A stretch of 64,000 nt of DNA from an uncultured bacterium (GTDB lineage Bacteria; Krumholzibacteriota; Krumholzibacteriia; LZORAL124-64-63): positions 13,831-77,830 of the forward strand of contig CALEMW010000054.1 in assembly GCA_937910695.1 (NCBI GenBank), read 5' to 3'. Below, piece by piece: positions 27,059 through 47,404 of this stretch. Positions within the stretch are counted from its first letter, which is position 1, and every line of letters begins with the position of its first letter. A model generated the notes under the pieces. The model was given only the letters and a program-made list of their open reading frames with translations. It was not told the origin of the DNA and did no database searches. The position numbers and the translations under genes were made by a program.

Positions 27059-28515
27059 GATTCCTCCGAGGTCAGGCCGGGAACGGCGGTCAGCGGCAGC
27101 ATGGGCGAAACGCCGATGGCCTTCTTGAGCTGGGCGGTGAGGGTGAGCACGTCGTAACGCGCCTGGATCAGATTGGAACGGGCTTGGGCCCTTCCGGATT
27201 CGGATTGCAGCACGGTGAGGTAGTCGGCCAGACCTTCGCGCATCATCATGGTGCTGGTGTCGATGAGTTCCTCGGCCCGTTCCATGTTCAGCTCGGCTGC
27301 CGTGAGGTTTTCGCGGGCGGCGATCAACCCGTCGATCACATCGAGGATTTCAACGCGCACCTGTCGCACCAGTCCGTTGCGTTCGGCCTCGGTACGCAGG
27401 ATCGAGGCCGAGGTCTGCTGCACGAGTCCCTTGGTGAGCAGACCGTCGAACAGCGGCACGTTGAGCGACACCGAAGCGTTCCAGAAGTCGTGCCCGACGT
27501 CGTCGAGATCCTTGATGGCCTTCCCTACATATCCGTAGCTGCTGTTGACGGCGAAATACGGACGCATGTCGGCCTTCTGGGCCTTGCGGTTCTGGCGCAA
27601 CAGGTCGCCCATGACGTCGAGCTGGGCCACGTCGGGGCGCTGCTCGGCCATGGCGACGGCCTTGTCTTTGATGAGTTCGTCGAGTTCCACTACCTGTTCG
27701 GTGCGGATGCTCAGAGGCGATTCGGGGTCGCGCCCCATCAGCGCGTTCAGCTGCGCACCAGCCAGGCCCACGCCCTGCCGGGCCTGCCTCAGCCGCGGTT
27801 CGATGTTGGCCACCGCCACGGCCGCCTGCAAAGTATCGAGCCGACTGACCAGACCCATGTCGTGACGCAGCCGCACGATGTCGAGGAATTCGCGCTGGTT
27901 GGCCAGCTCGGCCTCCACGGCCCGCGACTGCTCCTGGGCCAGGACGATGCCGTGGTATGCGGATACGACCTGTTCCTCCACCGCGAAGCGCGTCTGGTCA
28001 AGGATCAGCTCCTGGCGCCGGATCCCCTGGCCCGCGGCCCCCACCGCACCGATGATCTTCACCGGGTTGATGGTCCAGCTCAGGTTCAGGCTCGTGCGCC
28101 AGAAGGTCTGGGCCGGGATGTCCTGGGGGTCGGGCAGGAAGTCGAAACCGGCCAGCAGTGTGTCCAGGGGACTGGTGCCGATCTCGCCCGAGCCGTCGCC
28201 GCCGAAGGTGGAGTCGAGGGCGAAGCTCGGGTCCCGCGAGCGATTCCAGGCACCCGTCACGTCGATGGTCGGCAGACCCGTCGACAGGGCCTGGTTCATC
28301 TGACCGTCGAGTTCCTTGCGACGGAACCGTTCCGCCGTGAGCTGGTCGTTTTTGGACACGGCCTCACGCACACAGGCTTCGAGGTCGAGCACATCGGAGG
28401 CGCCGGGTCTGGCCGCAATCACGCCCCGTTCCGGCTCCTCGGCTACAGCCCCCGTCGCCAGCCACAAGGCCACGACCAGGAGACCACCATTGATCCACGT
28501 CGTTTTCATCGTCAT
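27055..28515 (-). CDS. TolC-family outer membrane efflux protein (OMF)
   Basis: Signal peptide. Paired alpha-helical/beta repeats typical of OMF. 4-nt overlaps on both sides. Confidence 0.8.
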   Translation of the reverse strand: MTMKTTWINGGLLVVALWLATGAVAEEPERGVIAARPGASDVLDLEACVREAVSKNDQLTAERFRRKELDGQMNQALSTGLPTIDVTGAWNRSRDPSFALDSTFGGDGSGEIGTSPLDTLLAGFDFLPDPQDIPAQTFWRTSLNLSWTINPVKIIGAVGAAGQGIRRQELILDQTRFAVEEQVVSAYHGIVLAQEQSRAVEAELANQREFLDIVRLRHDMGLVSRLDTLQAAVAVANIEPRLRQARQGVGLAGAQLNALMGRDPESPLSIRTEQVVELDELIKDKAVAMAEQRPDVAQLDVMGDLLRQNRKAQKADMRPYFAVNSSYGYVGKAIKDLDDVGHDFWNASVSLNVPLFDGLLTKGLVQQTSASILRTEAERNGLVRQVRVEILDVIDGLIAARENLTAAELNMERAEELIDTSTMMMREGLADYLTVLQSESGRAQARSNLIQARYDVLTLTAQLKKAIGVSPMLPLTAVPGLTSEES

Positions 28516-29114
28516 CCTTCCGAAGGTCGGGCCAGCAGGCCGTTGATCACGAACGCCTTGAGTTCGCGGACGAAGGCCTCGTCCGCATCGATCCGGGAAT
28601 TCTTGAAGAGCTGGGGCAGAATGCAGAAGAGCGAGTCCATCATCATGCCGATGATCAACGTCAGCTTCACCGCATGGACGGGTCGGAATTCACCGCTGGC
28701 CGACCCCATGGCGATGGCGGCGCCGAGAGCGGCGAACATGGGCTTGCAGCTGTCGTCGTTGAAAGCCTCGTCGACGGCCTGCATGGATTCGTCGTTCTCG
28801 AAGATCACCGCGAAAATGGGCGTGGCCTGGCAGCTGGTAATGTACTGATCGATGTAACGTTCGATCTGCACCGCGGCCGAGGTTTCATCGCGCACGGCCT
28901 CCTGCCACTCGAGAGTGAAGGCGGTGGCCATGTGCAGCACGAGCCGTCCGAAGAAGTCCTTCTTGTCGTCGAACTCCTCGTAGAAGGTGCGTTTGGACAA
29001 ACCCGCCTCACGGCAGATCTCCTCGATGGTTGTTTTGCGGTAACCGAAGCGGTTGAAGATCGGCAGGGCGGCAGCGAACAGCTCTGCCTTGCGATCCGGG
29101 TCCATCGGGCACAT
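28512..29114 (-). CDS. TetR/AcrR family transcriptional regulator
   Basis: N-terminal HTH 'TIEEICREAGLSKRTFYEEFDDKKDFF'. First gene of the efflux operon. Confidence 0.8.
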   Translation of the reverse strand: MCPMDPDRKAELFAAALPIFNRFGYRKTTIEEICREAGLSKRTFYEEFDDKKDFFGRLVLHMATAFTLEWQEAVRDETSAAVQIERYIDQYITSCQATPIFAVIFENDESMQAVDEAFNDDSCKPMFAALGAAIAMGSASGEFRPVHAVKLTLIIGMMMDSLFCILPQLFKNSRIDADEAFVRELKAFVINGLLARPSEG

Positions 29115-32101: not shown

Positions 32102-35100
32102 ATGATGATCACAGCATTCGCCGTTCTGGCCTTGTCTGCAGCGATCACGGCAGCCGGCGGCTCCATGACCGGCAAACCCAGAGTCGTTCCCGCCGACGAT
32201 ACCCACGTATTTGTGGCCCACGGCCCCGCCGTCGCCAAGAGCGACACCGTCACCCTGTTCGGCGGGCCCCTGCGCAACGACGGGAAGTTCCAGGACGACT
32301 TCAATCCGGCGCTGCCGGATTTCGAAGGCTGGACGGGAGTGGACATGAGGGCCGTCACCGTTTCCCGCTGGCACATCGACACCTTCAACTCCCCCACGGG
32401 CACCGCCGCCGCCTGGTGCGGCGAGATGTTCGAGAGCTGCGATGTCGATGATCCGCCCGAGGGCTACGGCAATAGCTACGAAGAGTACCTGGAATGGACC
32501 GGCCGGGTCGCGGATCCCGACCTCCCGACGAACATGACGGTGAGCTTCACGCTGAACTACGACAACGAGCCGGGGTACGACTACCTGTACCTGCAATCTC
32601 TCGGTGCCGCCGGCTGGAACGTCGTGGCCACCTACAACGGCAGCACCCTTCTCGAGGGAACGGGTTTCTTCCAACCTGTGTCGCCCGTCCTGAGCTTCAC
32701 CGTTCCGGCCTCCGATCTCGGCGGCGACGACGGCGACGAAATCCGGTTGCGGTTCCGCGCGACCTCGGACGGTGGGTGGGCCGATTCCGATTGTCTGTGG
32801 CCCACGTCCGGGCTGGCGCAGGTCGATGATGTCGCTGTGAGCGGGGACAATGGATTGGTCGCGACCTTCGACGACTTCGAGAACGGACTGGAGGGTGCGA
32901 GCTGGGCCCTGGGCTTCCCTATCGGTTACGGGAACTTCACGAAGATCTGGCCCCTGCTCGACGACCTCGATCCCTGTGTGCAGAACGATACGCCGCAGGC
33001 GGCGTTCATCGACGATGGGGTGGTGGTGCCCTGCACCGGTGGGACGTTGGGAACGTCCTGGACCTACGGCCCCGGGGGCTTCGTCGTCAACATGACCGGC
33101 GGCTGTGCAGGTCCGACGATGCACGGCTGGAACGAGATCTGGTCGCCGGCGATCGCCTGGGTGGATCCGGCGACGGGAATCGAGCTCGGCAGGACGCATC
33201 GCGGCGGCAGGTTGGAATATGGGATCTGGCCACATCTGCCGATCTCAAACGGGTGCTTCTATCTATGGCATGTTCGCTCGTCTTCCGATCATGGGATGAC
33301 ATGGACGGATTGGATGGATCGCAACTACGTCTATTACGGATCGACATCATACCAACGTGACTCGAGAGACGTCACCGATCTCGTCGTCGACAACCCGACC
33401 CATATCCAAGTGGCTCTCGGTTTCAGGGAGTTGGGGTGGATCTGGCCGATCTACCATGACCCGACCCCCGCCCCCTACTTCGACAACATCCGCTTCGACG
33501 TCTTCACCCTGACCGGTCCCACCCTCGCCGCCCAGGCCGACCTGCTCGCCCAGGACGCCTTCCCCGCCTCGGGCGTGCTCGACTTCGCCGAGCTCGCCGC
33601 CAACTCCATACGCTTCGACTGTGCCCGGGATCTCATAGAGGACGCAGCCACCGCCATCATGCCCGGCGACTCGCTTGTCTGCAGCGTCGCCTCCCATCGC
33701 CCGGGCGCCGTCCTCACCCAACCGCCCCGCCTGTACTACACCATGAAGCCGAACCCCCTGTTCGACCCCTGCCGGGAGCACCCGACGAGAGGCTGGGTCG
33801 TCGGAGACTCGGCGCGCACCGCGGCCGGCGAGGCCGTGCCCGATCTCTGGGCCTTCGACCTGCCCGACACCGGCTTCTTCTTCCCCGGCGACGTGATCCA
33901 CTACCTGTTCCACGCCGAGGACGACGTGGGCGGCGACGTCGAAGCCACGACCCTGCCCGCCTCGACCGTCGGCTTCGACGTGTTCCCCGGCGACCCCGGC
34001 TACGACCCGCTGCTCTGGCCCGCCGAGTTCACGGTGCGCGGGCTGCCGACGATGACCGGTTCCGAGCCCGGCGATCAGCCTACGGTGCTGCTGTGGGACG
34101 ACGGCGGGACGCGTCCGGACGCAGAGCGCTGGGAACCGGTCATGGCCGAGCTCGGCTACGACCTGGGCGTGCACTTCGATCTGTACCGGACCCAGGCCGC
34201 TTCGTCGGGCGTGAGCAACGGGCTGGGGTCGCGGGCGACGGTCGATCAGATCGCCGGTTACGAGACGGTCCTCTACTCCTGCGGGGATCAGGGGTCCTAC
34301 ACCCTCAACCATGTGAGCCGATACGGCGACAAGTCCGACGATCTCGGCCTGCTGGACGGCTGGTTGCCGCTGGGAGGCAATCTGCTGGTCTCGGGTGACA
34401 ACGTGGTGTACGACCTGGACAGGGGCCAGGGAGCAGCCGGCGACGCATTCGCCGCGGACTGGATCTCGGCCGCCTACATCGCCCCTGCGATCGAGGACCT
34501 CATCGATGGTCAGCTTGCACCGCTGATCATTGCCATCCCCGGCAACCCCGCCGGCCTCGCCCTGCCCTTCACCGTCTACGGCGACTGTCCCGGCCGCCGG
34601 CGCTTCAACGCCTTCGAGCCCGCAGGCGACGCGTTCGCCCTGGCGGAGTGGACCGATCCGTATGGCCAGGGCGGCGTCTATCCTTATGCCGCCGTCCTCG
34701 CCCATGAGACGGCGGGATCGCGCATCGTGACCATCGCCGCCGATCTGTCTGCCTGGATCGATCAGGACGGCGGGGCGGTGTCTCGACTCCACGCCCTCGC
34801 TTCGCTGCTCCAGTGGTTCGGGGAGCCGGTGCCGGGCGGGTCGACCGGTGTGGAGGACACACCGCGAGCGCTCGCCGCCCGCGCCTATCCGAACCCGTTC
34901 AATCCGCAGACGACGATCGTCTTCGACGTGCCGCGGCGCGGGCGGGTGTCGGTGGCCGTGTACGACGTGCGCGGACGGCTGGTGCGGCAGTTGGCGGACG
35001 GGAAGTACGAGGCTGGTTCGGCCTACGAAGCGACATGGACCGGTGACGACGACACCGGGCGATCCGTGGCGACAGGAGCCTACTTTGTCGAAGTGCGAAC

Positions 35101-35143
35101 CGGCGGGGAGTCAGTGGTGGAGAAGGTCATGCTGGTAAGGTGA
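32102..35143 (+). CDS. Large (~1010 aa) secreted protein of unknown function with T9SS type-A/FlgD-Ig C-terminal sorting domain
   Basis: Signal peptide 'MMITAFAVLALSAAITAAGG'. C-terminus 'AYPNPFNPQTTIVFDVPRRGRVSVAVYDVRGRLVRQLADG...TGAYFVEVRTGG'. Confidence 0.7.
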   Translation: MMITAFAVLALSAAITAAGGSMTGKPRVVPADDTHVFVAHGPAVAKSDTVTLFGGPLRNDGKFQDDFNPALPDFEGWTGVDMRAVTVSRWHIDTFNSPTGTAAAWCGEMFESCDVDDPPEGYGNSYEEYLEWTGRVADPDLPTNMTVSFTLNYDNEPGYDYLYLQSLGAAGWNVVATYNGSTLLEGTGFFQPVSPVLSFTVPASDLGGDDGDEIRLRFRATSDGGWADSDCLWPTSGLAQVDDVAVSGDNGLVATFDDFENGLEGASWALGFPIGYGNFTKIWPLLDDLDPCVQNDTPQAAFIDDGVVVPCTGGTLGTSWTYGPGGFVVNMTGGCAGPTMHGWNEIWSPAIAWVDPATGIELGRTHRGGRLEYGIWPHLPISNGCFYLWHVRSSSDHGMTWTDWMDRNYVYYGSTSYQRDSRDVTDLVVDNPTHIQVALGFRELGWIWPIYHDPTPAPYFDNIRFDVFTLTGPTLAAQADLLAQDAFPASGVLDFAELAANSIRFDCARDLIEDAATAIMPGDSLVCSVASHRPGAVLTQPPRLYYTMKPNPLFDPCREHPTRGWVVGDSARTAAGEAVPDLWAFDLPDTGFFFPGDVIHYLFHAEDDVGGDVEATTLPASTVGFDVFPGDPGYDPLLWPAEFTVRGLPTMTGSEPGDQPTVLLWDDGGTRPDAERWEPVMAELGYDLGVHFDLYRTQAASSGVSNGLGSRATVDQIAGYETVLYSCGDQGSYTLNHVSRYGDKSDDLGLLDGWLPLGGNLLVSGDNVVYDLDRGQGAAGDAFAADWISAAYIAPAIEDLIDGQLAPLIIAIPGNPAGLALPFTVYGDCPGRRRFNAFEPAGDAFALAEWTDPYGQGGVYPYAAVLAHETAGSRIVTIAADLSAWIDQDGGAVSRLHALASLLQWFGEPVPGGSTGVEDTPRALAARAYPNPFNPQTTIVFDVPRRGRVSVAVYDVRGRLVRQLADGKYEAGSAYEATWTGDDDTGRSVATGAYFVEVRTGGESVVEKVMLVR

Positions 35144-35382
35144 TGGTGCCACTGACCGGACGATGAACGGATCAGTCCATCGAGAACACGCGAAACATAC
35201 GTATAGTCCTGTGATTACGTGCGTTGCGATCACGCCACCTGCAACATCTCCGCCATGATCGAGGCCCCCACCCCCCATCCATTTGTCTCGCCCTCCCCCC
35301 TGTCCGCATATTGATCCCAGACGCCCCACGTAAACGAAACCGTTGCGCGGGGCGTCTCTGTATCCAAGCGAGGGGAGATATC

Positions 35383-35970
35383 ATGAAACCCGAATGGAAA
35401 CGACACGATGACACGGAGCTCGCCAGACAGGCCCTGGCCGGACGCGACGGCGCCTGGCGGGAGATCTACGACCGGACATGCCAGCCCCTCTTCAACTTCC
35501 TCTGCTACCAGACCGGCGACCGTGACCGGGCGCGGGATCTCCTGCAGGAGACCTACGTGACGGCCATGGCCCGGATCGGGGACTACCGCGGCGAGGGCCG
35601 GCTCGACGGCTGGCTGCGGACCATCGCCCTGCGCAAGTGCCTGGACTGGCGACGGCGCGCGGCGACGAGGCTGAGGAAGCTGGGGGAGCTGGCCCGCGAA
35701 CTCCCCTCGCCTCTCGAACGATCTGCGGAGGAGGACACCGTCGTGCTGGGCGACTCCTTCGAAGAGGCACTCGCCGGCCTCTCCTCGAAGCAGCGCGCGG
35801 CGCTCCTTCTCCGCGAACTCGAAGATCTCCCGTTCCGCGACGTCGCGGCGGCCCTGGGCTGCAGCGAGGCCACGGCGCGGGTTCATCACCACCGGGCGTG
35901 CCGCAACATGCGGCGGCTGCTCGGGGAGGGCGTCGCGCTCGTCCCCGACGGCACCACAGGAGGTGCTTGA
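35383..35970 (+). CDS. ECF sigma factor
   Basis: 'RDLLQETYVTAMARIGDYRGEGRLDGWLRTIALRKCLD' (region 2). 'LPFRDVAAALGCSEATARVHHHRACRNMR' (region 4). Confidence 0.8.
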   Translation: MKPEWKRHDDTELARQALAGRDGAWREIYDRTCQPLFNFLCYQTGDRDRARDLLQETYVTAMARIGDYRGEGRLDGWLRTIALRKCLDWRRRAATRLRKLGELARELPSPLERSAEEDTVVLGDSFEEALAGLSSKQRAALLLRELEDLPFRDVAAALGCSEATARVHHHRACRNMRRLLGEGVALVPDGTTGGA

Positions 35971-35971
35971 G

Positions 35972-38386
35972 ATGAAGAACCGATTCGATCCCCACCGTCA
36001 TCAGCTCGATGCGCGCGAACAGGACGCGCTCTGGCTGGAGATCCGCAACGCGGCGCGCGAGCCGCAGGCCCGACGCACCGCCTTCGCACCGGCGTTGGTC
36101 GTGTCCGCCGCCGCCGTGGCTCTCGCCCTGATCGGGGCCCTGGCCTTCTGGCCCGCCTCCGATCACGGCAACGATCCCCGGCGCAGCGCCCCCCTGGCGC
36201 AGCGCTACCAAGTGACCGAGGAGTCGGAGCCCGTGCTCCGGGACCGCGCGACCGGGCGTCCCGTGCCCGTACTCGAGGTCCTGCCGACCCCCGTGGACGA
36301 CTGCGAAGAAGCCGAGGACCCGCCCGCCCCCGCGGTCGTGCGCGGCGAGATTCGCGAAGCCTTCACCGGCGAACTCCTCGGTCACGCCGTCCTGACTTCC
36401 CTGGACGGCAGCGTCCACGCGGCGGCCGACAGCAACGGCGTGTTCCGGCTGTTCGGTGTGACGCCCGATCAGCCGCTGTCACTACACCTGAGTCGTTTGG
36501 GGTACACGCCCATCGACACCGTCCTGACGGCGGCGCCCGGGGAAACCCTCGTGGTGGCGCTGGTGATGGAGGCGATGATCGTGGCGCAGCTCGACGCCAT
36601 CGATGTGGAGGGCGATCGGTACATGGTCGATGTGAAGTCGACCGTCCGGGAGCAGTCGATCGACTCGTCGCGGCTGAGCAAGTACGCCATCGATTCGGTG
36701 GAGGACGCCATCGCCAAGCAGGCCGGAGCTCGTCCCAGTGGGAATCAACCGTACATGCTGGGTGGCGGCACCATGAATGTTGTCGAAGGAATCGACGGAT
36801 CCGCCCTGCAATCCCGTAGCATCCAGGTCGCTCGCAGGAAGCCGCGTCCGGGCGACGAAAACATCGCCGACACCCTGCTGTCCAGCGACGAGATGTTATC
36901 ATTTTCTAACTCCGTCACCGGCGGCACCACCCCGCCCAACGGCGAGCCCTACGAGCTCATGTACTTCCACCACGCCGGCGTGAACCCCTTCGTCACGACC
37001 GACGAGGACAACCTGAGCACCTTCGCCGTCGACGTGGACGACGCCTCCTACACCCTGGCGCGAAGCTACATCGAGAACGGCCATCTGCCGCCGCAGGACG
37101 CGGTGCGGGTGGAGGAGTTCGTCAACGTCTTCGACGGCGACTGGCCCGAGCACCGCGGCGAGGATCTGCGGATCCACGCCGACGGCGCGCCCTCCCGCTT
37201 CGGTGACGGCTATCACCTGCTGCGAGTCGGCCTGAGGGCACGCACCGTGGGCGCCATGGACCGTAAACCGGCCTTGCTGATCTTCGTGATCGACGTGTCG
37301 GGCTCCATGCGGGCCGGCAACCGCCTGGGCCTGGTCAAGGAGGCCCTGCTGACCCTGGTCGACGATCTCCACGAAGACGACCAGGTCGGACTGGTGATCT
37401 ACGGCAGTATCGGACAGGTGGTGCTCGAACCCACCGGGCCGGAGGACCACAGCCGCCTGCGCAAAGCCATCGCCTCGCTGCAGACCGGCGGCAGCACCAA
37501 CGCCCACGAGGGCCTGAAGCTGGCCTACGACATGGCGCGTGACCACTACGAAGCCGGCCACATCCACCGTTTGATCCTCTGCTCCGATGGGGTGGCGAAC
37601 AACGGCCTGACCGTTGCCGATCAGATTCTCGACGACGTGCGCCGCGAATCGGACCGCGGCATCCAGCTGACGACCGTCGGCTTCGGCATGGGCAACTACA
37701 ACGACGTGCTGATGGAGAAGCTCGCTGACACCGGCGACGGCACCTACCACTACGTGGACGATCTCGACGCCGCCCGCAACGTGTTCCGGCAGAACCTCAC
37801 CGGCCTGCTGCAGACCGTGGCCCGCGACGCCAAGATCCAGGTGGAATTCGACCCCGCACGGGTGCTGCGCTGGCGGCTGCTGGGCTACGAGAACCGCGAC
37901 GTCGCCGACCGTGATTTCCGCAACGACGACATCGACGCAGGCGAGGTCGGTTCGGCCCACGTCGTGACCGCTCTGTACGAAGTCAAACTGGCCGACGATG
38001 TGGTCGAGGCCATGGGCCGCAGCCTGGCCTGGGGCGCGAGCGCCGAGCTCGCCGTGGCCAGGGCGCGTTGGGAAGTGCCGGCTCACGACACCGAGCGGGC
38101 GGGCGAGGTGACGGAGATCGAGCAGAAGATCACCGCCGCCGACGTGGGCCGCAGCTTCGGGGCGGCCCGATCGGGGCTGCGGCTGCAGGCCGTGGCCGCC
38201 GAGTTCGCCGAGATCCTGCGCGGCAGCTTCTGGGCCCGCGAGAGCTCGCTGGCGGATCTGGTGCCGGTAGCGGACGCCACGGCGGCTGGACGCGACGGTG
38301 ATGGGGCGGCATCCGAGCTGGTCGACCTGATCAGGCGAGCGGCTGATCTTGCAGGCGACGGAGCGAAAGAAGGCCGGACCCGCTGA
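35972..38386 (+). CDS. Membrane anti-sigma factor fused to periplasmic carboxypeptidase-regulatory-like, vWA N-terminal, von Willebrand factor A (MIDAS) and DUF3520-like domains (YfbK-like sensor)
   Basis: Start 2 nt after the sigma stop. TM 'ALVVSAAAVALALIGALAFW'. vWA 'LLIFVIDVSGSMRAGNRLGLVKEAL...QTGGSTNAHEGL...LCSDGVANNG'. Confidence 0.7.
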   Translation: MKNRFDPHRHQLDAREQDALWLEIRNAAREPQARRTAFAPALVVSAAAVALALIGALAFWPASDHGNDPRRSAPLAQRYQVTEESEPVLRDRATGRPVPVLEVLPTPVDDCEEAEDPPAPAVVRGEIREAFTGELLGHAVLTSLDGSVHAAADSNGVFRLFGVTPDQPLSLHLSRLGYTPIDTVLTAAPGETLVVALVMEAMIVAQLDAIDVEGDRYMVDVKSTVREQSIDSSRLSKYAIDSVEDAIAKQAGARPSGNQPYMLGGGTMNVVEGIDGSALQSRSIQVARRKPRPGDENIADTLLSSDEMLSFSNSVTGGTTPPNGEPYELMYFHHAGVNPFVTTDEDNLSTFAVDVDDASYTLARSYIENGHLPPQDAVRVEEFVNVFDGDWPEHRGEDLRIHADGAPSRFGDGYHLLRVGLRARTVGAMDRKPALLIFVIDVSGSMRAGNRLGLVKEALLTLVDDLHEDDQVGLVIYGSIGQVVLEPTGPEDHSRLRKAIASLQTGGSTNAHEGLKLAYDMARDHYEAGHIHRLILCSDGVANNGLTVADQILDDVRRESDRGIQLTTVGFGMGNYNDVLMEKLADTGDGTYHYVDDLDAARNVFRQNLTGLLQTVARDAKIQVEFDPARVLRWRLLGYENRDVADRDFRNDDIDAGEVGSAHVVTALYEVKLADDVVEAMGRSLAWGASAELAVARARWEVPAHDTERAGEVTEIEQKITAADVGRSFGAARSGLRLQAVAAEFAEILRGSFWARESSLADLVPVADATAAGRDGDGAASELVDLIRRAADLAGDGAKEGRTR

Positions 38387-38478: not shown

Positions 38479-39516
38479 TCAAATGAGACCGGTCTTGCCC
38501 GTGACCCCGCGCTCCAGGTCCAGCAGGAACCTCTTGCGCCAGAGCCCGCCTCCGTAACCGGTCAGCGACCCGTCGGTGCCGATGACGCGGTGGCAGGGCA
38601 CGATGATGGCGATCCTGTTGTCGCCGTTGGCCCGGGCCACCGCACGCACGGCGTTGGGATTTCCCACGGCCACGGCCTGCTCGCGATAGCTCCGCGTCTG
38701 TCCGTAGGGAATGCTCCGGAGCTGTTCCCACGTCATCCGCTGAAAGTCCGTACCCGGCATCACCAGGGGTAGGTCGAACCGACGGCGCGTCCCCGCAAAG
38801 TACTCCCCGAGCTGGGCATCGAGGTTGTCGAAGTGCTCGTTGCGGCCAGGCATGAACTCGGCTCCGAGCAGCTTCCGCAATCTCGTGATCTGGGTCTCGA
38901 GCATCCTGCGGTCCGTGAATTCCAACAGACAGATGCCGTCGTCGGTCGCACCGGCAAAGAGAGGGCCAAGGGGCGAGAGGATCCGCGTAACGATCACGAC
39001 ATTCTGCTGCGCGCTTCGCGACGGCACGAAGCCGGTGGCCTTCTTGAAGGCTTCATTGAATCCACTCAGGGAGTCATAGCCAATGTCGAAGGCCGAATCG
39101 ATCACCTTGCCGGCGTGCCGTATCCGACCGAATGCTTCATTCAGGCGGCGTGAACGCAGGTAAGCCTGGAACGTCATTCCATGATGTTTTTTGAACCAAC
39201 GGCGTATCCGCGCCGGATCGATCCCACGTGCACGCAGATCGGCATCTTTGAGCCTCAGGGACGGATCACGATCAACCTCGGCGAGAAGCGGCTTCAGCCA
39301 GGCAGGGGGCTGACCGTACAACTCCATGGGATGACATGATTTGCAGGGCCTGTAGCCCAATGCCAACGCCTCCTTGACGTTTGCGAAATACTCCGTGTTT
39401 TCCAGGTTGGGTTTGCGGGCGGGGCAGGTCGGTCGGCAGAAAATGCCGGTGGTCTTGACCCCCACGACGAAAATCCCCTCGAACGACGGATCTCGGTCCA
39501 CAAGGGCGCGGTACAT
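38479..39516 (-). CDS. ada: Bifunctional Ada: Zn-Cys4 methylphosphotriester-repair domain + AraC-type HTH + O6-methylguanine-DNA methyltransferase
   Basis: 'FCRPTCPARKP...YRPCKSCHP' Cys4. AraC HTH. 'IVPCHRVIG' MGMT active site. The ORF extension upstream of ATG 39516 is AT-rich non-coding. Confidence 0.85.
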   Translation of the reverse strand: MYRALVDRDPSFEGIFVVGVKTTGIFCRPTCPARKPNLENTEYFANVKEALALGYRPCKSCHPMELYGQPPAWLKPLLAEVDRDPSLRLKDADLRARGIDPARIRRWFKKHHGMTFQAYLRSRRLNEAFGRIRHAGKVIDSAFDIGYDSLSGFNEAFKKATGFVPSRSAQQNVVIVTRILSPLGPLFAGATDDGICLLEFTDRRMLETQITRLRKLLGAEFMPGRNEHFDNLDAQLGEYFAGTRRRFDLPLVMPGTDFQRMTWEQLRSIPYGQTRSYREQAVAVGNPNAVRAVARANGDNRIAIIVPCHRVIGTDGSLTGYGGGLWRKRFLLDLERGVTGKTGLI

Positions 39517-39894
39517 CACCGACGTTTCGGGCAGGTTCGAACGGTTCACGGAAGCTCCTTGGTTCGAGGTCGGCGAGAGTATGAGGGTTCGAATTGTGCC
39601 GTGCTTGCGAAAACTGGACGGAGATATGGATTCTCGGAGTGTCCGGCAAGAGATAGAACTCCGTGGAACACAAATACGATTGATCGACTCCTGTATTTTT
39701 GTAAAATTATCATCATATTGAATTTTACAGATCATAATATAAGTAACCTGTGATACAATCGCATACTCGTCAGATATCGACATCTTTAGCGCCGATGAAC
39801 GCCTTTTAGGCCTAATCGGCATATGACAGGTCCGGAGTTGGATCAAAATCGCAACATGGTGTGGCGACACGATCCGACGGAGAAAGGAAGGCCC

Positions 39895-42800
39895 ATGAAA
39901 CGCACTCTTGTGATGGTCACCCTGATTTTCGCTACCCTATGCGCCTCGATGGCATCGGGCGCGACGCAGGCCATCCCCCTGCAGGCCGAACGCACGGCCC
40001 TCGACCTGGTCGACACCCGTGGCGACGCCCTCCAGTTCCGCGTGAACATCGCCGAGCTGCAGGCCATGGACGTGACCACGTCCGCCGGCGATTTCTCCCG
40101 GATCGTCATCCCCGGGTTCCACAACTCGATGATCGACGGCAGCCCCGAGCTGCCCATGATGAATCGGTTGTTGGAACTTCCTTTCGGCGCCAATGCGCGC
40201 GTCGAAGTGGTTTCGGCATCGCGGCGCGTGGTGCGATTGGCCGACCACGGCATCACCACACCGCTGATGCCCCACCAGCCCAGCGTCTCCAAGAGCGCCG
40301 ACCTGGACAATCTGCCCTTCATTTACGACCGGGCCGCCTATGCCGGCACCGTGGCGCGTGAACTGGTGCGGGTCGTCGAGCTGGGTCAGCTGCGTTCCCG
40401 CGGGCTCGTCCGTTGCGAGATTTCCCCGGTGGAGTACCTGCCTGAAAGCGGCGAGCTGATCATCCACGACCAGATCGAATTCCGCGTCATATTCGACGGC
40501 GTCGACCGCGCCGGCGAGGCCGACATGCTGGCCCGAACCTGGAGCCCCTTCTTCTCGCCCCTGTTCACCAACGTTGCAGGATCGCGGGCGAACCACTTCG
40601 ACTTCCCCGACCTCGTCAAGAACCCCGTGACGATGGTCGTCGTGACCCCGCCCGAGTTCCAGTACGTGTTGACCGACTTCGTCAACTGGAAGACCGAGCG
40701 CGGCTTCAACATGATCATGGGCGTGACCGGCACCCCCGAAGTGGGCGCCACCGCCGCCTCGATCCAGTCCTACCTGCACGGCCTCTACAACGCCGCCACG
40801 CCCGAGCTGCCGGCCCCGAGCTTCGTGCTCTTCGTCGGCGACGTGGCTCAGATGCCCACGTTCACCGAGGGCGGCGACGCCACCGACCGTCCCTACTGCG
40901 CGGTCGACGGCGACCTCTATCCGGACATGTACTACGGCCGCTTCTCGTGCACCAACGTGAGCCAACTCCAGGCTCAACTCGACAAGACGATGATGTACGA
41001 CCAGTTCACGATGCCCGACCCCAGCTACCTGGGCAACGTGACGATGATCGCCGGCGTCGACGGGAGCTTCGCCCCGACCCACGGCAACGGCCAGATCAAC
41101 TACGGCACCGAGCACTACTTCAACGCCGCCCACGGCATCAACAGCTACACGTACCTGTATCCCGCTTCGGACGCCGCCGGCGCTCCGGCCGAGATCGTGG
41201 CGCATGCGAGCGAGGGCGTTGGCTTCATCAACTACACCGCCCACGGCAGCCAGACAAGCTGGTCCGACCCCGCCTTCACCCAGACGAACATCAACAGTCT
41301 GACGAACACCGGGAAGTATTTCCTGGCCATCGGCAACTGCTGCCTGACCTCGACCTACGACTACGGCGAGTGCTTCGGCGAGACCTTCCTGCGCGCCGCG
41401 GGTAAGGGCGCCGTGGGTTACATCGGCGGCTCCAACTCGACCTACTGGGACGAGGACTACTGGTGGGGCGTGGGCTTCCACGCCAGCTCGCAGATCGACG
41501 GCTCGGCCTATCCCGTCGAGAGCACGGGCATCGGCGTGTACGACGGCATCTTCCACGACCACGGCGAGGCTCCCGCCCAGCAGTACGTGACCAACGACGC
41601 CGTCGTGTTCTGCGGCAACATGACCGTCACCGAATCCGGATCCAGCCGTGAGACCTACTACTGGAACATCTACAACCTGTTGGGAGACCCTTCCCTGTCG
41701 ACCTACATGGGCGTGCCGACGACCAACCCCGTCAGCCATCAGCCCGTGTTCACGAACTCCCCGGACCTCGTCATCGACGCGGCCCCGGGCAGCTACGTGG
41801 GTCTGACCCAGGGCGGCGTCATCTTCGCCGCCGGCACGATCCCCGCGGGCGGCCGTCTGGCCCTGCCCATCAACGGCGTGCTCACCCCGGGCACGGCCAA
41901 GCTGGTCGTCACTGCCCAGAACCGTGAGCCCTATGTCGAGGTCGTTCCGGTCATCGTGCCGGCGACCGTGCTGATCGACCCCGCGGCCATCGACGCCAAC
42001 GTCGCCACCGACGTGACCGTCACGGTCTACGGCGAGGACGGCGTGACCCCCGTGGTCGGCCTGAGCGTCTGGGCCGAGGGCCTGGGCTATGCCACCGCGC
42101 CGGTGCTGACCGACGCCCTGGGCGTGGCCGTGCTTAACGTGACCTACCCCTACGGTCCGACCGTGGACATCGTGGGCCGCAACATGGCCGACCCGTACGA
42201 GCTCTTCCGCGAGCCCCTGACGGTCAACGCCTTGGCCCTGGCTTCACCCGATCTGTCGGTTTCGACCGGCATCGGCATGGCCGACATGTTCCCGCTGAAC
42301 CTGCCCGCCGACCTGAACGCCACGGTCGCCGAGCCCGGGTTCACGCTGCACGCCTTCCTGCCCGACGGCAGTGAGCTGACCACCGGCGCCGCGTCGATGA
42401 GCATCACCGCCGGCGACTTGGGCCTTGTGACCGGCGTGATCGCGGTCAGCGGCTACGACATCTACACCGAGTCCTTCGACGTCATCGAAGCCTTCGGCAC
42501 CATGACGGGCGTCGTGACTGCCGGCGGCGGCGGCGCGGCCGGTGCGGTCGTGCGTCTGATCGACGGCGGCGGCATCGAAGCCTACAGCGCGACCTGCGAC
42601 GGCGCGGGCGCCTACGACTTCGGCGGCGACATCCTGGTCGCCAACTACGACGTCGTGATCGACTACTTCGGCTATCTGCACTATGAGATGCCGTACTTCG
42701 TGAACTTCGGCGCCAACGTCTACGACATCGCGTTGACGGCGGCCCCGAGCGGCGTACTCACCGGTACGCTGAGCGATTCGGTCACCGGCGAGCTGCTCGA

Positions 42801-44673
42801 GGGCGGCATCGTGCGCGTGTTCCGTCATGACACAGGCACGCTCTACACCGAGGCCGTGAGCGACGTCGCCGGCACGTTCACGACCACGGCACTGCCCTAC
42901 TTCAACTACGACATCATGGTGCGTGCCTACCATCACGTGCCGGTGATCATCACCCTTGAAGTCGCCGACCCGGTCGTCACCAAGGACTTCGTCCTCGAGC
43001 CGACCAACGGCGACCTGCTGATCATCGACGACAACGGCGCTGCGGCGGCCAAGGCCGACAAGTTCGACGAGAAGGGCAACTTCCTCGCGGCCGGTTATAT
43101 GAGCGAGGCTCCCAAAACGGCCGCCCAGATGGCCAGCACGCTGGAGCTCGTCGGCTACAGTGTGACCGTCGAGACTTCAGGTACGACGGACCCGTCGTCC
43201 TGGTCGATGTACGACCTGGTCATCGTGTCCTGCGCCGACAACACGTCGGCCCTGCCCGACGCCGTTATCCGCAATGCGTTGATCAACTATGTCGACGCCG
43301 GCGGCAAGCTGCTGCTCGAAGGCGGCGAAGTCGGCTACAACCATTACGGCAGCGGTGCCTTCGCCGAGCGCGTCATGCACTCGACGGACTGGAACCACGA
43401 CGCCAGCGGCAACTTCGTCATCGCGGAGCCCACGCACCCGGTGATGAGCGTGCCCAACGCGGTCGAGGACAACTCACCGGTCACCTACAACGGCTACGGA
43501 GACCAGGACGCCATGGCGCCCCTGGGCGACGCCGTGATGGTCGGTACTTGGGCCACCTACCCGACCGACGCCAGCGTGATCTGCTACGATCCGAACCCGG
43601 CGCCCGAGGGCGGTCAGATCGTCTTCATGTGCTTCAACTACGGCGCTCTGCCCGGCAGCTGCGCCACGGGCATTCTCGAGAACGCAGTGAACTGGCTGCT
43701 GGTGCTCGAGGCCGGCACTTCGTCGGTGACCGGTCAGGTCCTGCTGTCCGGTGAAACGAACCATGCGGGCATCCTCGTCGAGGCCGTGCCCGGCGGCGGT
43801 TCCACCTTCACGGCGACCGACGGTACGTACACCCTGCCCGGCCTGTTCGCCGGCGAGTACACGATCCGCGCTTCGAAGTCCGGATGGGGAACACAGGCCC
43901 AGGCTGTTTCTCTTGCCGAGGGACAGGCTACGACGGTGGATCTGGTGCTCACACCGGTCCTGGAGTTCGACGGCTGCAACCAGCCCGCGCTGGCGATTCC
44001 TGATAACAGCCCGGCCGGTGTGTCCGACGTGATGACCGTCGATCTGGGCTACGGCGCTTCGACGACCGTATCGGAGATCTCGGTCTTCGTTGACGTGACC
44101 CACACCTGGCAGGGCGACCTTCTCGTCACCCTGACCTCGCCCATGGGCACGAGCGTCGTGCTGCACAACCGCACCGGCAGCAGCGCCGACAACATCTACG
44201 GCTGGTACCCGACCGAACTGGTTCCCGCAGGCGACCTCGGCGTGTTCGCCGGGCAACTGACCAACGGCGACTGGACCCTGTCGATCAGCGACAACGCCGG
44301 CGCCGACACCGGCTCGTTGAACGAGTGGTGCCTGCACATGGTCTTCAGCGGCGTGGTGACCAACGAGGGCGAACCTGGCGACAGCGCCGTTCCGTCGGTC
44401 TACAAGCTCCACTCCAACTACCCGAACCCATTCAACCCCATGACCAACGTCAAGTTCGAGCTGTCCCGCCCGGGCCTGACCAAGGTCAGCGTGTACGATG
44501 TGAGCGGCCGTCTGATCAAGACGCTCGTGAACGAAGACCTGCCGGCTTCGGTCTACACCGTGACCTGGGACGGCACCAACAGCCGCGGCCAGCGCGTGGC
44601 CAGCGGCACGTACTACCTCCGCCTGGTCTCCGATGACTTCCAGGCGGTTCACAAGATGACGATGCTGAAGTAG
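39895..44673 (+). CDS. Gingipain-like cysteine peptidase (family C25) with propeptide, multiple Ig-like/CarboxypepD_reg-like domains, a proprotein-convertase P-domain and a T9SS type-A C-terminal sorting domain (1592 aa)
   Basis: RBS GAAAGGAAGG. Signal peptide. Catalytic His 'INYTAHGSQTSWSDPAF' and Cys 'FLAIGNCCLTSTYDYGECFGETF' (RgpB-like). P-domain 'VTHTWQGDLLVTLTSPMGTSVVLHNRTG'. C-terminus 'YPNPFNPMTNVKFELSRPGLTKVSVYDVSGRLIKTL'. Confidence 0.85.
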   Translation: MKRTLVMVTLIFATLCASMASGATQAIPLQAERTALDLVDTRGDALQFRVNIAELQAMDVTTSAGDFSRIVIPGFHNSMIDGSPELPMMNRLLELPFGANARVEVVSASRRVVRLADHGITTPLMPHQPSVSKSADLDNLPFIYDRAAYAGTVARELVRVVELGQLRSRGLVRCEISPVEYLPESGELIIHDQIEFRVIFDGVDRAGEADMLARTWSPFFSPLFTNVAGSRANHFDFPDLVKNPVTMVVVTPPEFQYVLTDFVNWKTERGFNMIMGVTGTPEVGATAASIQSYLHGLYNAATPELPAPSFVLFVGDVAQMPTFTEGGDATDRPYCAVDGDLYPDMYYGRFSCTNVSQLQAQLDKTMMYDQFTMPDPSYLGNVTMIAGVDGSFAPTHGNGQINYGTEHYFNAAHGINSYTYLYPASDAAGAPAEIVAHASEGVGFINYTAHGSQTSWSDPAFTQTNINSLTNTGKYFLAIGNCCLTSTYDYGECFGETFLRAAGKGAVGYIGGSNSTYWDEDYWWGVGFHASSQIDGSAYPVESTGIGVYDGIFHDHGEAPAQQYVTNDAVVFCGNMTVTESGSSRETYYWNIYNLLGDPSLSTYMGVPTTNPVSHQPVFTNSPDLVIDAAPGSYVGLTQGGVIFAAGTIPAGGRLALPINGVLTPGTAKLVVTAQNREPYVEVVPVIVPATVLIDPAAIDANVATDVTVTVYGEDGVTPVVGLSVWAEGLGYATAPVLTDALGVAVLNVTYPYGPTVDIVGRNMADPYELFREPLTVNALALASPDLSVSTGIGMADMFPLNLPADLNATVAEPGFTLHAFLPDGSELTTGAASMSITAGDLGLVTGVIAVSGYDIYTESFDVIEAFGTMTGVVTAGGGGAAGAVVRLIDGGGIEAYSATCDGAGAYDFGGDILVANYDVVIDYFGYLHYEMPYFVNFGANVYDIALTAAPSGVLTGTLSDSVTGELLEGGIVRVFRHDTGTLYTEAVSDVAGTFTTTALPYFNYDIMVRAYHHVPVIITLEVADPVVTKDFVLEPTNGDLLIIDDNGAAAAKADKFDEKGNFLAAGYMSEAPKTAAQMASTLELVGYSVTVETSGTTDPSSWSMYDLVIVSCADNTSALPDAVIRNALINYVDAGGKLLLEGGEVGYNHYGSGAFAERVMHSTDWNHDASGNFVIAEPTHPVMSVPNAVEDNSPVTYNGYGDQDAMAPLGDAVMVGTWATYPTDASVICYDPNPAPEGGQIVFMCFNYGALPGSCATGILENAVNWLLVLEAGTSSVTGQVLLSGETNHAGILVEAVPGGGSTFTATDGTYTLPGLFAGEYTIRASKSGWGTQAQAVSLAEGQATTVDLVLTPVLEFDGCNQPALAIPDNSPAGVSDVMTVDLGYGASTTVSEISVFVDVTHTWQGDLLVTLTSPMGTSVVLHNRTGSSADNIYGWYPTELVPAGDLGVFAGQLTNGDWTLSISDNAGADTGSLNEWCLHMVFSGVVTNEGEPGDSAVPSVYKLHSNYPNPFNPMTNVKFELSRPGLTKVSVYDVSGRLIKTLVNEDLPASVYTVTWDGTNSRGQRVASGTYYLRLVSDDFQAVHKMTMLK

Positions 44674-44842: not shown

Positions 44843-47404
44843 ATGCACATGCCCACCGTTCGCCACACGGGCTTGATCTTCGCTATTTGCCTGATCTGCC
44901 TCGGCGCCGCCGCAACGGCCGTTTCCGCCTACGAAGCACCCCTGGACCACAACGGCCTGCCCCAGTGGGTCGAGAAAGTCTGGACCGACGCCCCGATCCG
45001 CCTCGAACTGCGCGATCACGCGGAGCTGCAGCAGCTGCTCGCCGCCGTGCCCATCGCAGCGTTCAACCGCGAGGATGTGGGCTTTTCCGGCGATGTGAAG
45101 AACCGCACCCTGGTGCTGCGGACCCGCGTCACCGAAGCCGAGTTCGCCGCCCTGACCGCCGCCGGCTGGAGTCCCGAGCGCGTGCGCGACCTCGATCGCG
45201 AGGGTCGCGAAGCCGCCGAACAGGTGTGGCGCGATATGGCCGAGGGCAAGGCCGTGGGCGACAAGACTTATCCCTACAACTACTACCCGACCCACGCGGA
45301 GATCGGCACCATCCTGGCCGCCGTCGAGACCGCCCACCCCGCCATCGCGCGGGACTTCCAGTGGGGCTCGTCGGTGCAGGGCCGCGCGTTGTGGGGCATC
45401 GTCATTTCCGACAACGTGAACGTGAACGAGGCCGAGCCGGAAATCCGATTCTCGTCGACCATGCACGGCGACGAAGTCACGGGAATGATCTTGATGCTGG
45501 ATCTGGCCGAATACCTGACGACGAACTATGGCGTCGCCGGCTACGAGGACGTCACCTACCTGGTCGACAACTACGAAATCCATCTCATGCCCGACCACAA
45601 CCCCGACGGTACGGCGGCCGGTCAGCGTTACAACGCCCACAGCATCGACCTGAACCGCAACTACCTGCTGCCCCAGGGCACTGACACGGTGCTCGAGCTC
45701 GAGAACCAGAACATGATCAACTACTCCACCGGGCAGCACTTCGTGATCAGCTTGAACTTCCACGGCGGCGCCCTGGTAGCGAACTACCCGTGGGACTGGA
45801 CCTACACCCTGTCCGACGACAACCCGGCGCTGATCAAGATGAGCCTGGAGTACTCCACCTACAACTCGCCCATGTACAACGGCTCGTTCCCCCAGGGCAT
45901 CACCAACGGGGCCGACTGGTACGTCGTGTACGGGTCGCACCAGGACTGGAGCTACGACCAGACCGACTGCATCGACGTGACCCTCGAAGTGTCCAACACC
46001 AAGTGGCCCTCGGCCGGCACGCTGGTGGGCTTCTGGAACGACAACCGCGAGAGCCTGATGCACTACGCCAAGTCCGCCCGCTACGGCGTCAACGGCATCG
46101 TGACCGGTTCCGATACCGGACTGCCCCTCGACGCCACCGTGACGGTGACCGGCAACTCCATGGAAGTGCACACCGATCCCGAGAACGGCGACTACTACAA
46201 GCTGCTCGACACCGGCACCTACGCCCTCACCTTCGAAGCCTACGGCTACATCACACAGACGATCACCGGCGTGTCCACCGTGTGGGGCACCCCGACGGTG
46301 CTCGACGTGGTGCTCGATCCGGTGGCGACCGGCGCCGTGGACGGCTTCGTGTACGAGCAGGGCGGCGCGCCCATCGCGGCCCGCGTCGACGCCTACACCC
46401 ACCCGCTGAATGTGTTCATCAACACGGCCTACAGCGCCGCCGGCGACGGTTCGTACAGCCTGCCCAACCTGGTGTACGGCGACTACAAGCTGGTCTACAG
46501 CGCCGCCGACCACGCCACCGTGGAGCAGGTCGTGACGGTGGATGCCTCCTCGGTGACCGCCCCCGACGTGACTCTTGGCCTGACCATGCCGATCACGCCC
46601 TTCGCCACCAATTTCGATGGTCAGCTGACCGACGGCTGGACCGGTGCCTGGGGCATCCAGACAGGCGGCGCCGACGGCACTGCGTACTCCATGAGCGACA
46701 GCCCCGGCGGCAACTACGCGGCCAACACGAACTCGGCCTGTACCATGGATGCGGGCGTGGATCTGAGCACCATGGACGCGGGAAGCGTGAGCTTCTGGGC
46801 AAGGTGGGACATCGAGGCCAACTGGGACGGCGTCTCGTTCGAAGTGTCCACCAACGGCGGCGGTGCGTGGACCAAACTGGCCACGACCTACACCCAGGCA
46901 GGCAGCGGTCAGGGTGCCCAGCAATCCGGACAACCCTACTTCGAGGGCAGCCAGGCCGCCTGGGTCTTCAACGAGGTCGACCTCGCCCCCTGGCTCGGCC
47001 TGGCGGATGTGCGCTTCCGCTTCGTGCTGGGATCCGACGGTTCTGTGCAGAAGGACGGCTTCACCTTCGATGAATTCATGATCGACGGCGTAGGCGCGAT
47101 CGTGACGGGCGCCGACAATATTCCGGTCGCAGTCCGGCTCGACGGCGTGAGCCCGAACCCGTTCAACCCCTCGACGAACGTGCGATTCACCCTGGCCCGC
47201 GACGGCCTGGCCCGCGTCGACGTCTTCGACGTGACCGGACGCCTGGTGCGAACCCTCGTTGACGGACGCTTGCCGGCGGGCGACCATGCTGTGACCTGGA
47301 ACGGCCGCAACGACGACGGTTCTCAGACCGCCAGCGGTCTTTACTTCGTGCGTCTGCGGAGCGGCGGCGTGAGCGAGACGGCGAAGGCGCTGCTCGTCAA
47401 GTAA
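44843..47404 (+). CDS. Secreted M14 zinc carboxypeptidase (M14B-like) with transthyretin-like regulatory domain, MAM/LamG-like domain and T9SS type-A C-terminal sorting domain
   Basis: Signal peptide. Zn ligands 'STMHGDEVTG' (HxxE) and 'LNFHGGALVANYPWD'. 'DLNRNY'. C-terminus 'VSPNPFNPSTNVRFTLARDGLARVDVFDVTGRLVRTL'. Confidence 0.8.
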   Translation: MHMPTVRHTGLIFAICLICLGAAATAVSAYEAPLDHNGLPQWVEKVWTDAPIRLELRDHAELQQLLAAVPIAAFNREDVGFSGDVKNRTLVLRTRVTEAEFAALTAAGWSPERVRDLDREGREAAEQVWRDMAEGKAVGDKTYPYNYYPTHAEIGTILAAVETAHPAIARDFQWGSSVQGRALWGIVISDNVNVNEAEPEIRFSSTMHGDEVTGMILMLDLAEYLTTNYGVAGYEDVTYLVDNYEIHLMPDHNPDGTAAGQRYNAHSIDLNRNYLLPQGTDTVLELENQNMINYSTGQHFVISLNFHGGALVANYPWDWTYTLSDDNPALIKMSLEYSTYNSPMYNGSFPQGITNGADWYVVYGSHQDWSYDQTDCIDVTLEVSNTKWPSAGTLVGFWNDNRESLMHYAKSARYGVNGIVTGSDTGLPLDATVTVTGNSMEVHTDPENGDYYKLLDTGTYALTFEAYGYITQTITGVSTVWGTPTVLDVVLDPVATGAVDGFVYEQGGAPIAARVDAYTHPLNVFINTAYSAAGDGSYSLPNLVYGDYKLVYSAADHATVEQVVTVDASSVTAPDVTLGLTMPITPFATNFDGQLTDGWTGAWGIQTGGADGTAYSMSDSPGGNYAANTNSACTMDAGVDLSTMDAGSVSFWARWDIEANWDGVSFEVSTNGGGAWTKLATTYTQAGSGQGAQQSGQPYFEGSQAAWVFNEVDLAPWLGLADVRFRFVLGSDGSVQKDGFTFDEFMIDGVGAIVTGADNIPVAVRLDGVSPNPFNPSTNVRFTLARDGLARVDVFDVTGRLVRTLVDGRLPAGDHAVTWNGRNDDGSQTASGLYFVRLRSGGVSETAKALLVK

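Follow-up and report, generated by a model that had tools for sequence, protein, structure and literature searches.

Pairs of an extracytoplasmic function (ECF) sigma factor and its anti-sigma factor are among the commonest signalling devices of bacteria, and the signals perceived by most of their sensor domains have yet to be identified. We analysed one candidate pair in a 64,000-nucleotide stretch (the window) of contig CALEMW010000054.1, from an uncultured bacterium of the Krumholzibacteriota. It consists of an ECF sigma factor gene followed by the gene of an 804-aa membrane protein with a vWA (von Willebrand factor A) domain in its predicted periplasmic part. The closest described system is ECF289, a group of ECF sigma factors paired with vWA+DUF3520 proteins, which was split from the CnrH-containing group ECF20 (Casas-Pastor et al. 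2021, PMC7826278). Here too the sigma factor gene is followed by that of a membrane protein with vWA and DUF3520 (YfbK_C) domains, whose role as anti-sigma factor has been assumed from context alone. Our full-text literature search found DUF3520 together with ECF289 in no work besides that of Casas-Pastor, and turned up no experimental work on anti-sigma factors of the vWA kind.

Other described proteins resemble parts of the 804-aa protein. E. coli YfbK and the secreted or lipoprotein YfbK-like proteins share its periplasmic module of three domains, including an intact metal ion-dependent adhesion site (MIDAS). They start with a signal peptide or a lipobox and have no adjoining sigma factor, whereas the window protein starts with a cytoplasmic helix, is anchored by a transmembrane helix and contains a segment derived from a transporter. 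Class II anti-sigma factors of the CnrY type (PMC7406223) also combine a very short cytoplasmic sigma-binding region with one transmembrane helix and no zinc motif. CnrY, however, wraps its sigma factor with two helices and has a small periplasmic part, compared with one predicted helix and about 745 periplasmic residues here; the likeness is one of layout. Oar-type transporters are built from a CarboxypepD_reg N-terminal extension, a TonB box, a Plug domain and a 22-strand barrel (PMC6434023). The N-terminal extension, TonB-box region and first half of the plug have homologous counterparts in the window family, but the window protein has no beta-barrel and a truncated plug, and is anchored in the inner rather than the outer membrane. 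Finally, the proposed vWA force transducers (PMC12204202) share a layout in which a transmembrane helix is followed by a disordered linker and then a periplasmic YfbK-like vWA module. Their helix carries SHLS/His or Asp and tolQ/tolR-like motor genes adjoin them, while the helix of the window protein (APALVVSAAAVALALIGALA) has neither His nor Asp, no motor genes lie within 10 kb of the pair and its neighbour is a sigma factor. We therefore rejected this identity.

We think it likely that the window pair is an autoregulated two-gene module of an ECF sigma factor and a membrane anti-sigma factor with a vWA sensor; we hold any particular signal for it with much less confidence. At present the pair counts as one uncharacterised example of a class already catalogued, and not as a new principle. 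What is new here is a conserved predicted promoter, a minimal cytoplasmic motif and a transporter-derived segment, together with a sigma factor that may well lie outside ECF289.

Sigma factor, gene order and predicted promoter

Both genes lie on the forward strand and run in the same direction, with the coordinates given in an earlier reading made from the letters alone (the sequence-only reading; Table 1). The sigma factor matches Sigma70_r2 (PF04542, 39 bits) and Sigma70_r4_2 (PF08281, 53.9 bits), and scores 79.8 bits with the NCBIfam model of the ECF superfamily, TIGR02937, against a cut-off of 42.9. With domains 2 and 4 only and a length close to 200 aa it fits ECF group IV, and it has no C-terminal extension. 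Its best solved relative is M. tuberculosis SigE (E 4e-14). The match to CnrH is weak (E 0.2), and a CnrH-like identity was rejected.

The ATG of the second gene lies 1 nt past the stop codon of the first, with GGAGG at 35959-35963; translation of the two genes is coupled. The same two products come from independent gene calls on four metagenome contigs that encode the identical protein. Longer open reading frames, starting at TTG 35224 for the sigma factor and GTG 35963 for the putative anti-sigma factor, were discarded as over-extensions typical of high-GC DNA. In relatives the two genes share a 4-bp overlap (ATGA), as found both by open reading frame analysis and by independent gene calls. 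The latter also show a sigma factor gene followed by a vWA gene with a 4-bp overlap in three distant homologs.

Aligning the regions upstream of the sigma factor genes revealed a common motif, GTAA[AG]C-N17-CG[TA]C, in all 22 loci (0.07 expected from shuffled sequences). The spacer is exactly 17 nt in every one of them, and the distance to the start codon is 25-75 nt. ECF promoters are typified by an AAC / CGT pattern. The window copy, GTAAAC-N17-CGTC, has AAC in the -35 and CGT in the -10 element and is a predicted ECF autoregulatory promoter, which the sequence-only reading had missed. Whether searched in its exact or its degenerate form, the pattern matches the 64-kb window once, at the sigma factor gene itself, and each of 21 related loci also has it exactly once, always at the sigma factor gene. 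Because this promoter is conserved, occurs once per locus and has the AAC/CGT pattern, the operon is very probably autoregulated, with its targets unlinked.

A cytoplasmic motif that accompanies the sigma factor

The 804-aa protein starts with the family motif MKxxLxxxRxxLxDxExExLWxxI. In 27 homologs W21 is invariant and E16 nearly so (at least 90%), and helix 14-28 is modelled with a predicted local distance difference test score (pLDDT) of about 80. The AlphaFold2 model was built on 120 homologs and has a mean pLDDT of 77; residue numbers are those of the 804-aa form, and Pfam matches were renumbered accordingly. The sole strongly hydrophobic segment comprises residues 41-59 (Kyte-Doolittle 2.54), and the protein is predicted to be single-pass with its N-terminus inside.

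We examined 79 loci taken from one-genome-per-species contigs. Homologs are 45-69% identical over their full length, and dozens of full-length homologs occur in Krumholzibacteriota, Eisenbacteria, Gemmatimonadota and related metagenome-assembled genomes (MAGs). The N-terminal motif is present in 21 loci; in 19 of these a closely related ECF sigma factor (E 1e-38 to 1e-88) is encoded directly upstream with the 4-bp ATGA overlap, and two are cut off by contig edges. Among the motif-less homologs for which sequence upstream is available, 30 have no sigma factor at all and start like a secreted protein or a lipoprotein. Fourteen motif-less homologs, from Thermoanaerobaculia/Acidobacteriota, Dehalococcoidia and Phycisphaerae, adjoin a more distant ECF sigma factor and have a different N-terminus, without the CarboxypepD_reg/plug-remnant segment.

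The pairing of sigma and anti-sigma factor claimed in the sequence-only reading is strongly supported by this comparative context, because the motif co-occurs with the sigma factor, homologs without the motif lack a closely related sigma factor and the two genes overlap in relatives. Casas-Pastor et al. (PMC7826278) independently assigned vWA+DUF3520 proteins as the +1 anti-sigma factors of an ECF group. The other half of the claim, a sigma-binding N-terminus, stands less firmly: these roughly 38 residues, with one predicted helix, match no anti-sigma family, and their binding of the sigma factor is presumed. With 38 aa, one predicted helix, no Cys motif (Hx3Cx2C) and no Pfam match, the region does not belong to the class I anti-sigma domains (ASDI), which are cytoplasmic four-helix domains of about 100 aa that often carry this Cys motif. 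It is only loosely compatible with class II (CnrY/NepR-like, two short helices in contact with sigma domains 4 and 2), which it resembles in length, with only helix 14-28 predicted.

A conserved third gene, encoding a protease, TonB/ExbBD, a transporter or metal resistance, was sought in 23 loci, and none was conserved beyond close relatives. As the sigma factor gene is the sole conserved neighbour, the pair is a self-contained module.

A YfbK-like module with an intact MIDAS

Pfam and AlphaFold2 bear out the general architecture proposed from the letters: next to the ECF sigma factor is a protein that crosses the membrane once and combines a carboxypeptidase-regulatory-like fold with a vWA domain and a DUF3520 tail. 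The linker after the transmembrane helix has a pLDDT below 50 at residues 61-113 and is gappy in the alignment. The beta-sandwich that follows is modelled at a pLDDT of about 96; its CarboxypepD_reg match (residues 123-199) reaches 26.9 bits, below the gathering score of 32.3, and homologs reach 48-69 bits, so that the family has the N-terminal extension typical of Oar-type transporters. AlphaFold2 then shows an unfolded stretch at residues 206-314 and a confident vWA module at residues 330-800. The domain scan recovered PF12450, vWA and PF12034 in this order, as in YfbK-like proteins (scores in Table 1). In a Foldseek search against the PDB the module matched vWA-plus-beta-sandwich proteins, namely ArnB/VWA2, 4fx5, ITIH1, Sec23/24 and pilus tip adhesins. 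Neither FecR nor STN has a Pfam match on the window protein, which is not a FecR-type regulator.

The MIDAS on which the sequence-only reading hinged is present as D441-V-S443-G-S445, T509 and D539, which confirms what that reading had observed. These residues align to the MIDAS of the ITIH4 and ITIH1 vWA domains, are invariant in alignments of 27 and of 120 homologs, and are predicted to bind metal. The description of the architecture as unusual was overstated. We found 4636 proteins at E<=1e-10, with the anti-sigma N-terminus in 95 of the top 120, and the combination of an ECF sigma factor with vWA/DUF3520 is already catalogued as ECF289.

Table 1. Features of the sigma/anti-sigma gene pair in the window
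Feature	Residues	Position in window	Strand	Remarks
ECF-type autoregulatory promoter (predicted), GTAAAC (-35) N17 CGTC (-10)		35330..35356	+	26 nt upstream of sigma start codon
ECF (group IV) sigma factor gene		35383..35970	+	195 aa; ATG 35383, TGA 35968-35970
Putative anti-sigma factor gene		35972..38386	+	804 aa; ATG 35972
Cytoplasmic N-terminus	1-38	35972..36085	+	one amphipathic helix, residues 14-28; presumed sigma-binding element
Single transmembrane helix	39-58	36086..36145	+	AlphaFold2 helix
Periplasmic linker	59-120	36146..36331	+	variable length, poorly conserved, predicted disordered
CarboxypepD_reg-like beta-sandwich	121-199	36332..36568	+	corresponds to N-terminal extension of Oar/SusC-type TonB-dependent transporters
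TonB-box region and first half of Plug, remnant	194-280	36551..36811	+	degenerate in window protein, predicted unfolded
vWF_A N-terminal domain (PF12450)	331-417	36962..37222	+	79 bits; confidently modelled
vWA domain (VWA PF00092)	436-606	37277..37789	+	69 bits; complete MIDAS
MIDAS residues	D441, S443, S445, T509, D539	37292-37294 (D441), 37304-37306 (S445), 37496-37498 (T509), 37586-37588 (D539)	+	
YfbK_C/DUF3520 (PF12034)	613-792	37808..38347	+	122 bits; profile positions 3-183 of 184; pLDDT >90

An intact MIDAS raises the question of whether metal is what the protein senses, the sequence-only reading having suggested a metal or a ligand. The occupancy of the site by a particular metal ion would then itself be the signal, in a metal-stress system like CnrH/CnrY; the origin of ECF289 in the old ECF20, the group of the metal-responsive CnrH, would fit this. 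We consider it very unlikely. Heavy-metal contexts are listed for ECF281, ECF290 and ECF291, not for ECF289 (PMC7826278). The window sigma factor hardly resembles CnrH, and metal-resistance genes are not conserved beside the pair. Moreover, the MIDAS is just as invariant in secreted homologs that have no sigma factor and do not signal. In characterised vWA domains the metal is normally a cofactor for binding an acidic ligand.

A segment derived from TonB-dependent transporters

Between the beta-sandwich and vWF_A lies a block, also overlooked in the sequence-only reading, with the family consensus LEPxIVATLxAFDVEGAxYMVEVKS...KYAIDSVEDALSKQAGVV.R.GELYVRGGRSGEV.M.IDGV. Pfam Plug is matched by 8 of 17 family members at 18-21 bits, below the gathering score of 23.9, in colinear fashion over profile positions 5-67 of 107; the window copy has no Pfam Plug match. 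A profile of the beta-sandwich plus this block retrieves, over 96% of its length, N-terminal fragments of TonB-dependent receptors (E 1e-16 to 1e-26). The retrieved fragments carry full Plug matches (33-41 bits), and their NCBI names are those of TonB-dependent receptors. When the block alone was compared with them by hhalign, the probability was 98.6% and E 6.3e-16 over 80 columns, a span that takes in the TonB-box region together with the plug's first half. Against PDB sequences the block profile gave chance matches only.

In a secreted relative from Zixibacteria (L028) a complete Plug (34.7 bits, above the Pfam threshold; profile positions 3-105 of 107) lies between CarboxypepD_reg and vWF_A, and the block is present in other secreted relatives as well. 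On the strength of the Plug matches, the profile retrieval, the hhalign result and this complete Plug, the periplasmic part of the window protein is, by homology, an Oar-type transporter N-terminus in which the barrel has been replaced by the YfbK module. The beta-barrel PF00593 has no Pfam match on the window protein, where the YfbK module follows the plug remnant. In the anti-sigma branch no complete Plug is left: it is cut to about half (the first ~60% at family level), and the remnant has a pLDDT below 50 in both AlphaFold2 models, that of the window protein and that of the homolog P0009, which keeps the RGGRSGEV motif intact.

The secreted relatives are of interest in themselves. L028:1201-3171 (a Zixibacteria MAG), L040, L055 and L034 encode a signal peptide, CarboxypepD_reg, a complete or partial Plug and the YfbK module. 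Their plug domains are without a barrel, and we did not find a description of such an architecture.

The transporter-derived segment invites the idea that the anti-sigma factor is coupled to the Ton system. TonB would bind and pull on the retained transporter N-terminus (beta-sandwich and TonB-box region) while the vWA domain holds a partner in the outer membrane or outside the cell. The force would unfold or expose the disordered segment and release the sigma factor, so that one protein would do what FecA/FecR do in cell-surface signalling. In favour of this, the block shares homology with the TonB-box and plug region of Oar-type transporters, and an isolated Oar fragment consisting of the N-terminal extension and plug binds the TonB C-terminal domain in a two-hybrid assay (PMC6434023). 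A separate proposal places YfbK-like vWA domains at the C-terminus of TonB/TolA-like force transducers (PMC12204202), and the block is conserved yet predicted unfolded, as expected of an element that is pulled or exchanges strands. However, the equivalent of the TonB box has diverged (AFDVEGA, compared with xVVVTA), the remnant is degenerate in the window protein, tonB, exbB and exbD are not conserved near the pair in the loci examined, and the segment may be an evolutionary leftover. We regard Ton coupling as unlikely.

A bolder reading of the same features is a new trans-envelope signalling device that combines in one polypeptide a one-helix anti-sigma element, a TonB-interacting transporter N-terminus and a MIDAS adhesion module. 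The sigma factor would then be released by the pull of TonB on a vWA domain that has engaged its ligand, and not by ligand binding as such. We think this rather unlikely; if true, the one-helix anti-sigma element could be a fourth structural class.

Relation to ECF289

The window pair shares with ECF289 a +1 gene that encodes a vWA + DUF3520 protein, to which the window protein adds the CarboxypepD_reg beta-sandwich and the transporter plug remnant. With CnrH similarity as a proxy for membership, the window sigma factor may well belong to a different clade from ECF289. The match to CnrH is E 0.2 for the window sigma factor, compared with 5e-7 for the partner sigma factor of the acidobacterial (Thermoanaerobaculia) type. 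This difference suggests independent recruitment of YfbK modules by two or more ECF clades, of which the window represents the undescribed one.

The acidobacterial loci provide a second type of putative anti-sigma factor fused to YfbK (L024, L032, L033, L038, L047, L059 and L062, from Thermoanaerobaculia, Acidobacteriota and Dehalococcoidia). It has a longer cytoplasmic N-terminus with the motif PEPPxxLLxxIxxxIP and no CarboxypepD_reg/plug-remnant segment, and its gene overlaps that of its more CnrH-like ECF sigma factor by 4 bp. This second type is probably the catalogued ECF289 type.

Neighbouring genes

Three very large secreted proteins, encoded on the forward strand at 32105-35143, 39895-44673 and 44849-47404, flank the pair. 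They are a 1012-aa protein, a 1592-aa gingipain-like protein (Peptidase_C25 + P_proprotein) and an 851-aa Peptidase_M14 protein, with C-terminal sorting domains of the FlgD_ig/Por_Secre_tail type ending in ...YPNPFNP.... The promoter motif of the sigma factor is absent upstream of all three genes. With one mismatch allowed, the window contains 4 promoter-like sites, which is not a significant excess over the 2.3 expected; one of them is inside an Ada-like gene. The proteases encoded beside the pair, cargo of the type IX secretion system, can therefore not be claimed as members of the regulon.

The Ada-like gene (38479-39549, reverse strand; Ada_Zn_binding, AraC HTH_18 and methyltransferase DNA_binding_1) and the anti-sigma gene converge. 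On the reverse strand, a hairpin resembling a terminator (38393-38373) overlaps the stop codon of the anti-sigma gene and may act for the two genes alike. Upstream is a divergent cluster on the reverse strand (25972-29105) for a resistance-nodulation-division efflux adaptor, an outer-membrane factor (OEP) and a TetR regulator, followed on the forward strand by a small EamA-like gene and an epimerase. At the locus of the homolog P0035 (L084:10684-13018), genes for a second ECF sigma factor and a 575-aa protein without Pfam match lie directly downstream of the vWA pair, so that ECF modules stand in tandem.

Discussion

In the mechanism we propose, the short conserved cytoplasmic helix (L12, E16, L20, W21, I24) would hold the sigma factor at the membrane, while the vWA module, by way of a divalent cation bound at the MIDAS, would bind an acidic group on a ligand in the envelope or outside the cell, which is most likely a protein. 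Gain or loss of this contact would free the sigma factor, probably by regulated proteolysis of the disordered periplasmic segments and then intramembrane cleavage. The freed sigma factor would amplify its own operon and switch on unlinked target genes.

Several observations weigh against this proposal. A Pfam anti-sigma domain was found neither in the full protein nor in ten N-termini at E<=10, and the cytoplasmic part amounts to about 38 aa with one predicted helix only. By comparison, the mean length of class I domains is 101+/-33 aa, and CnrY relies on two helices (PMC7406223). A second copy of the promoter was not found within 64 kb. In the plug segment the window protein has the degenerate motif MLGGGTMNV instead of VRGGRSGEV, and the segment may be vestigial in this protein.

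The first of these points could also mean that the 804-aa protein is not an anti-sigma factor at all. It might be a membrane-anchored vWA adhesin or envelope protein, the first target of a sigma factor that is controlled in some other way. In favour of this are the lack of a match to any known anti-sigma domain, a cytoplasmic tail that falls short, in length, of all structurally characterised anti-sigma domains, and the existence of secreted relatives without a sigma factor. This seems improbable to us. The conserved motif of the cytoplasmic helix is confined to homologs with a closely related sigma factor alongside and gives way to a signal peptide elsewhere, and the tight 4-bp overlap is conserved across phyla. 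Nor did we find any other candidate regulator conserved beside the sigma factor, which itself, with domains 2 and 4 only, has no C-terminal extension.

The sigma/anti-sigma module is the reading we prefer. The family is spread widely among phyla of the radiation related to the Fibrobacteres-Chlorobi-Bacteroidetes group that have been little studied and are mostly uncultured. Its promoter is defined, its candidate sigma-binding peptide is very short and its MIDAS can be mutated, which makes it amenable to study in a heterologous host. The fusion of a barrel-less transporter N-terminus to a YfbK module is also a second, independent hint that links YfbK-type vWA proteins to the Ton/Tol machinery. 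The first such hint came from the proposed vWA force transducers, and the link bears on the function of YfbK in E. coli.

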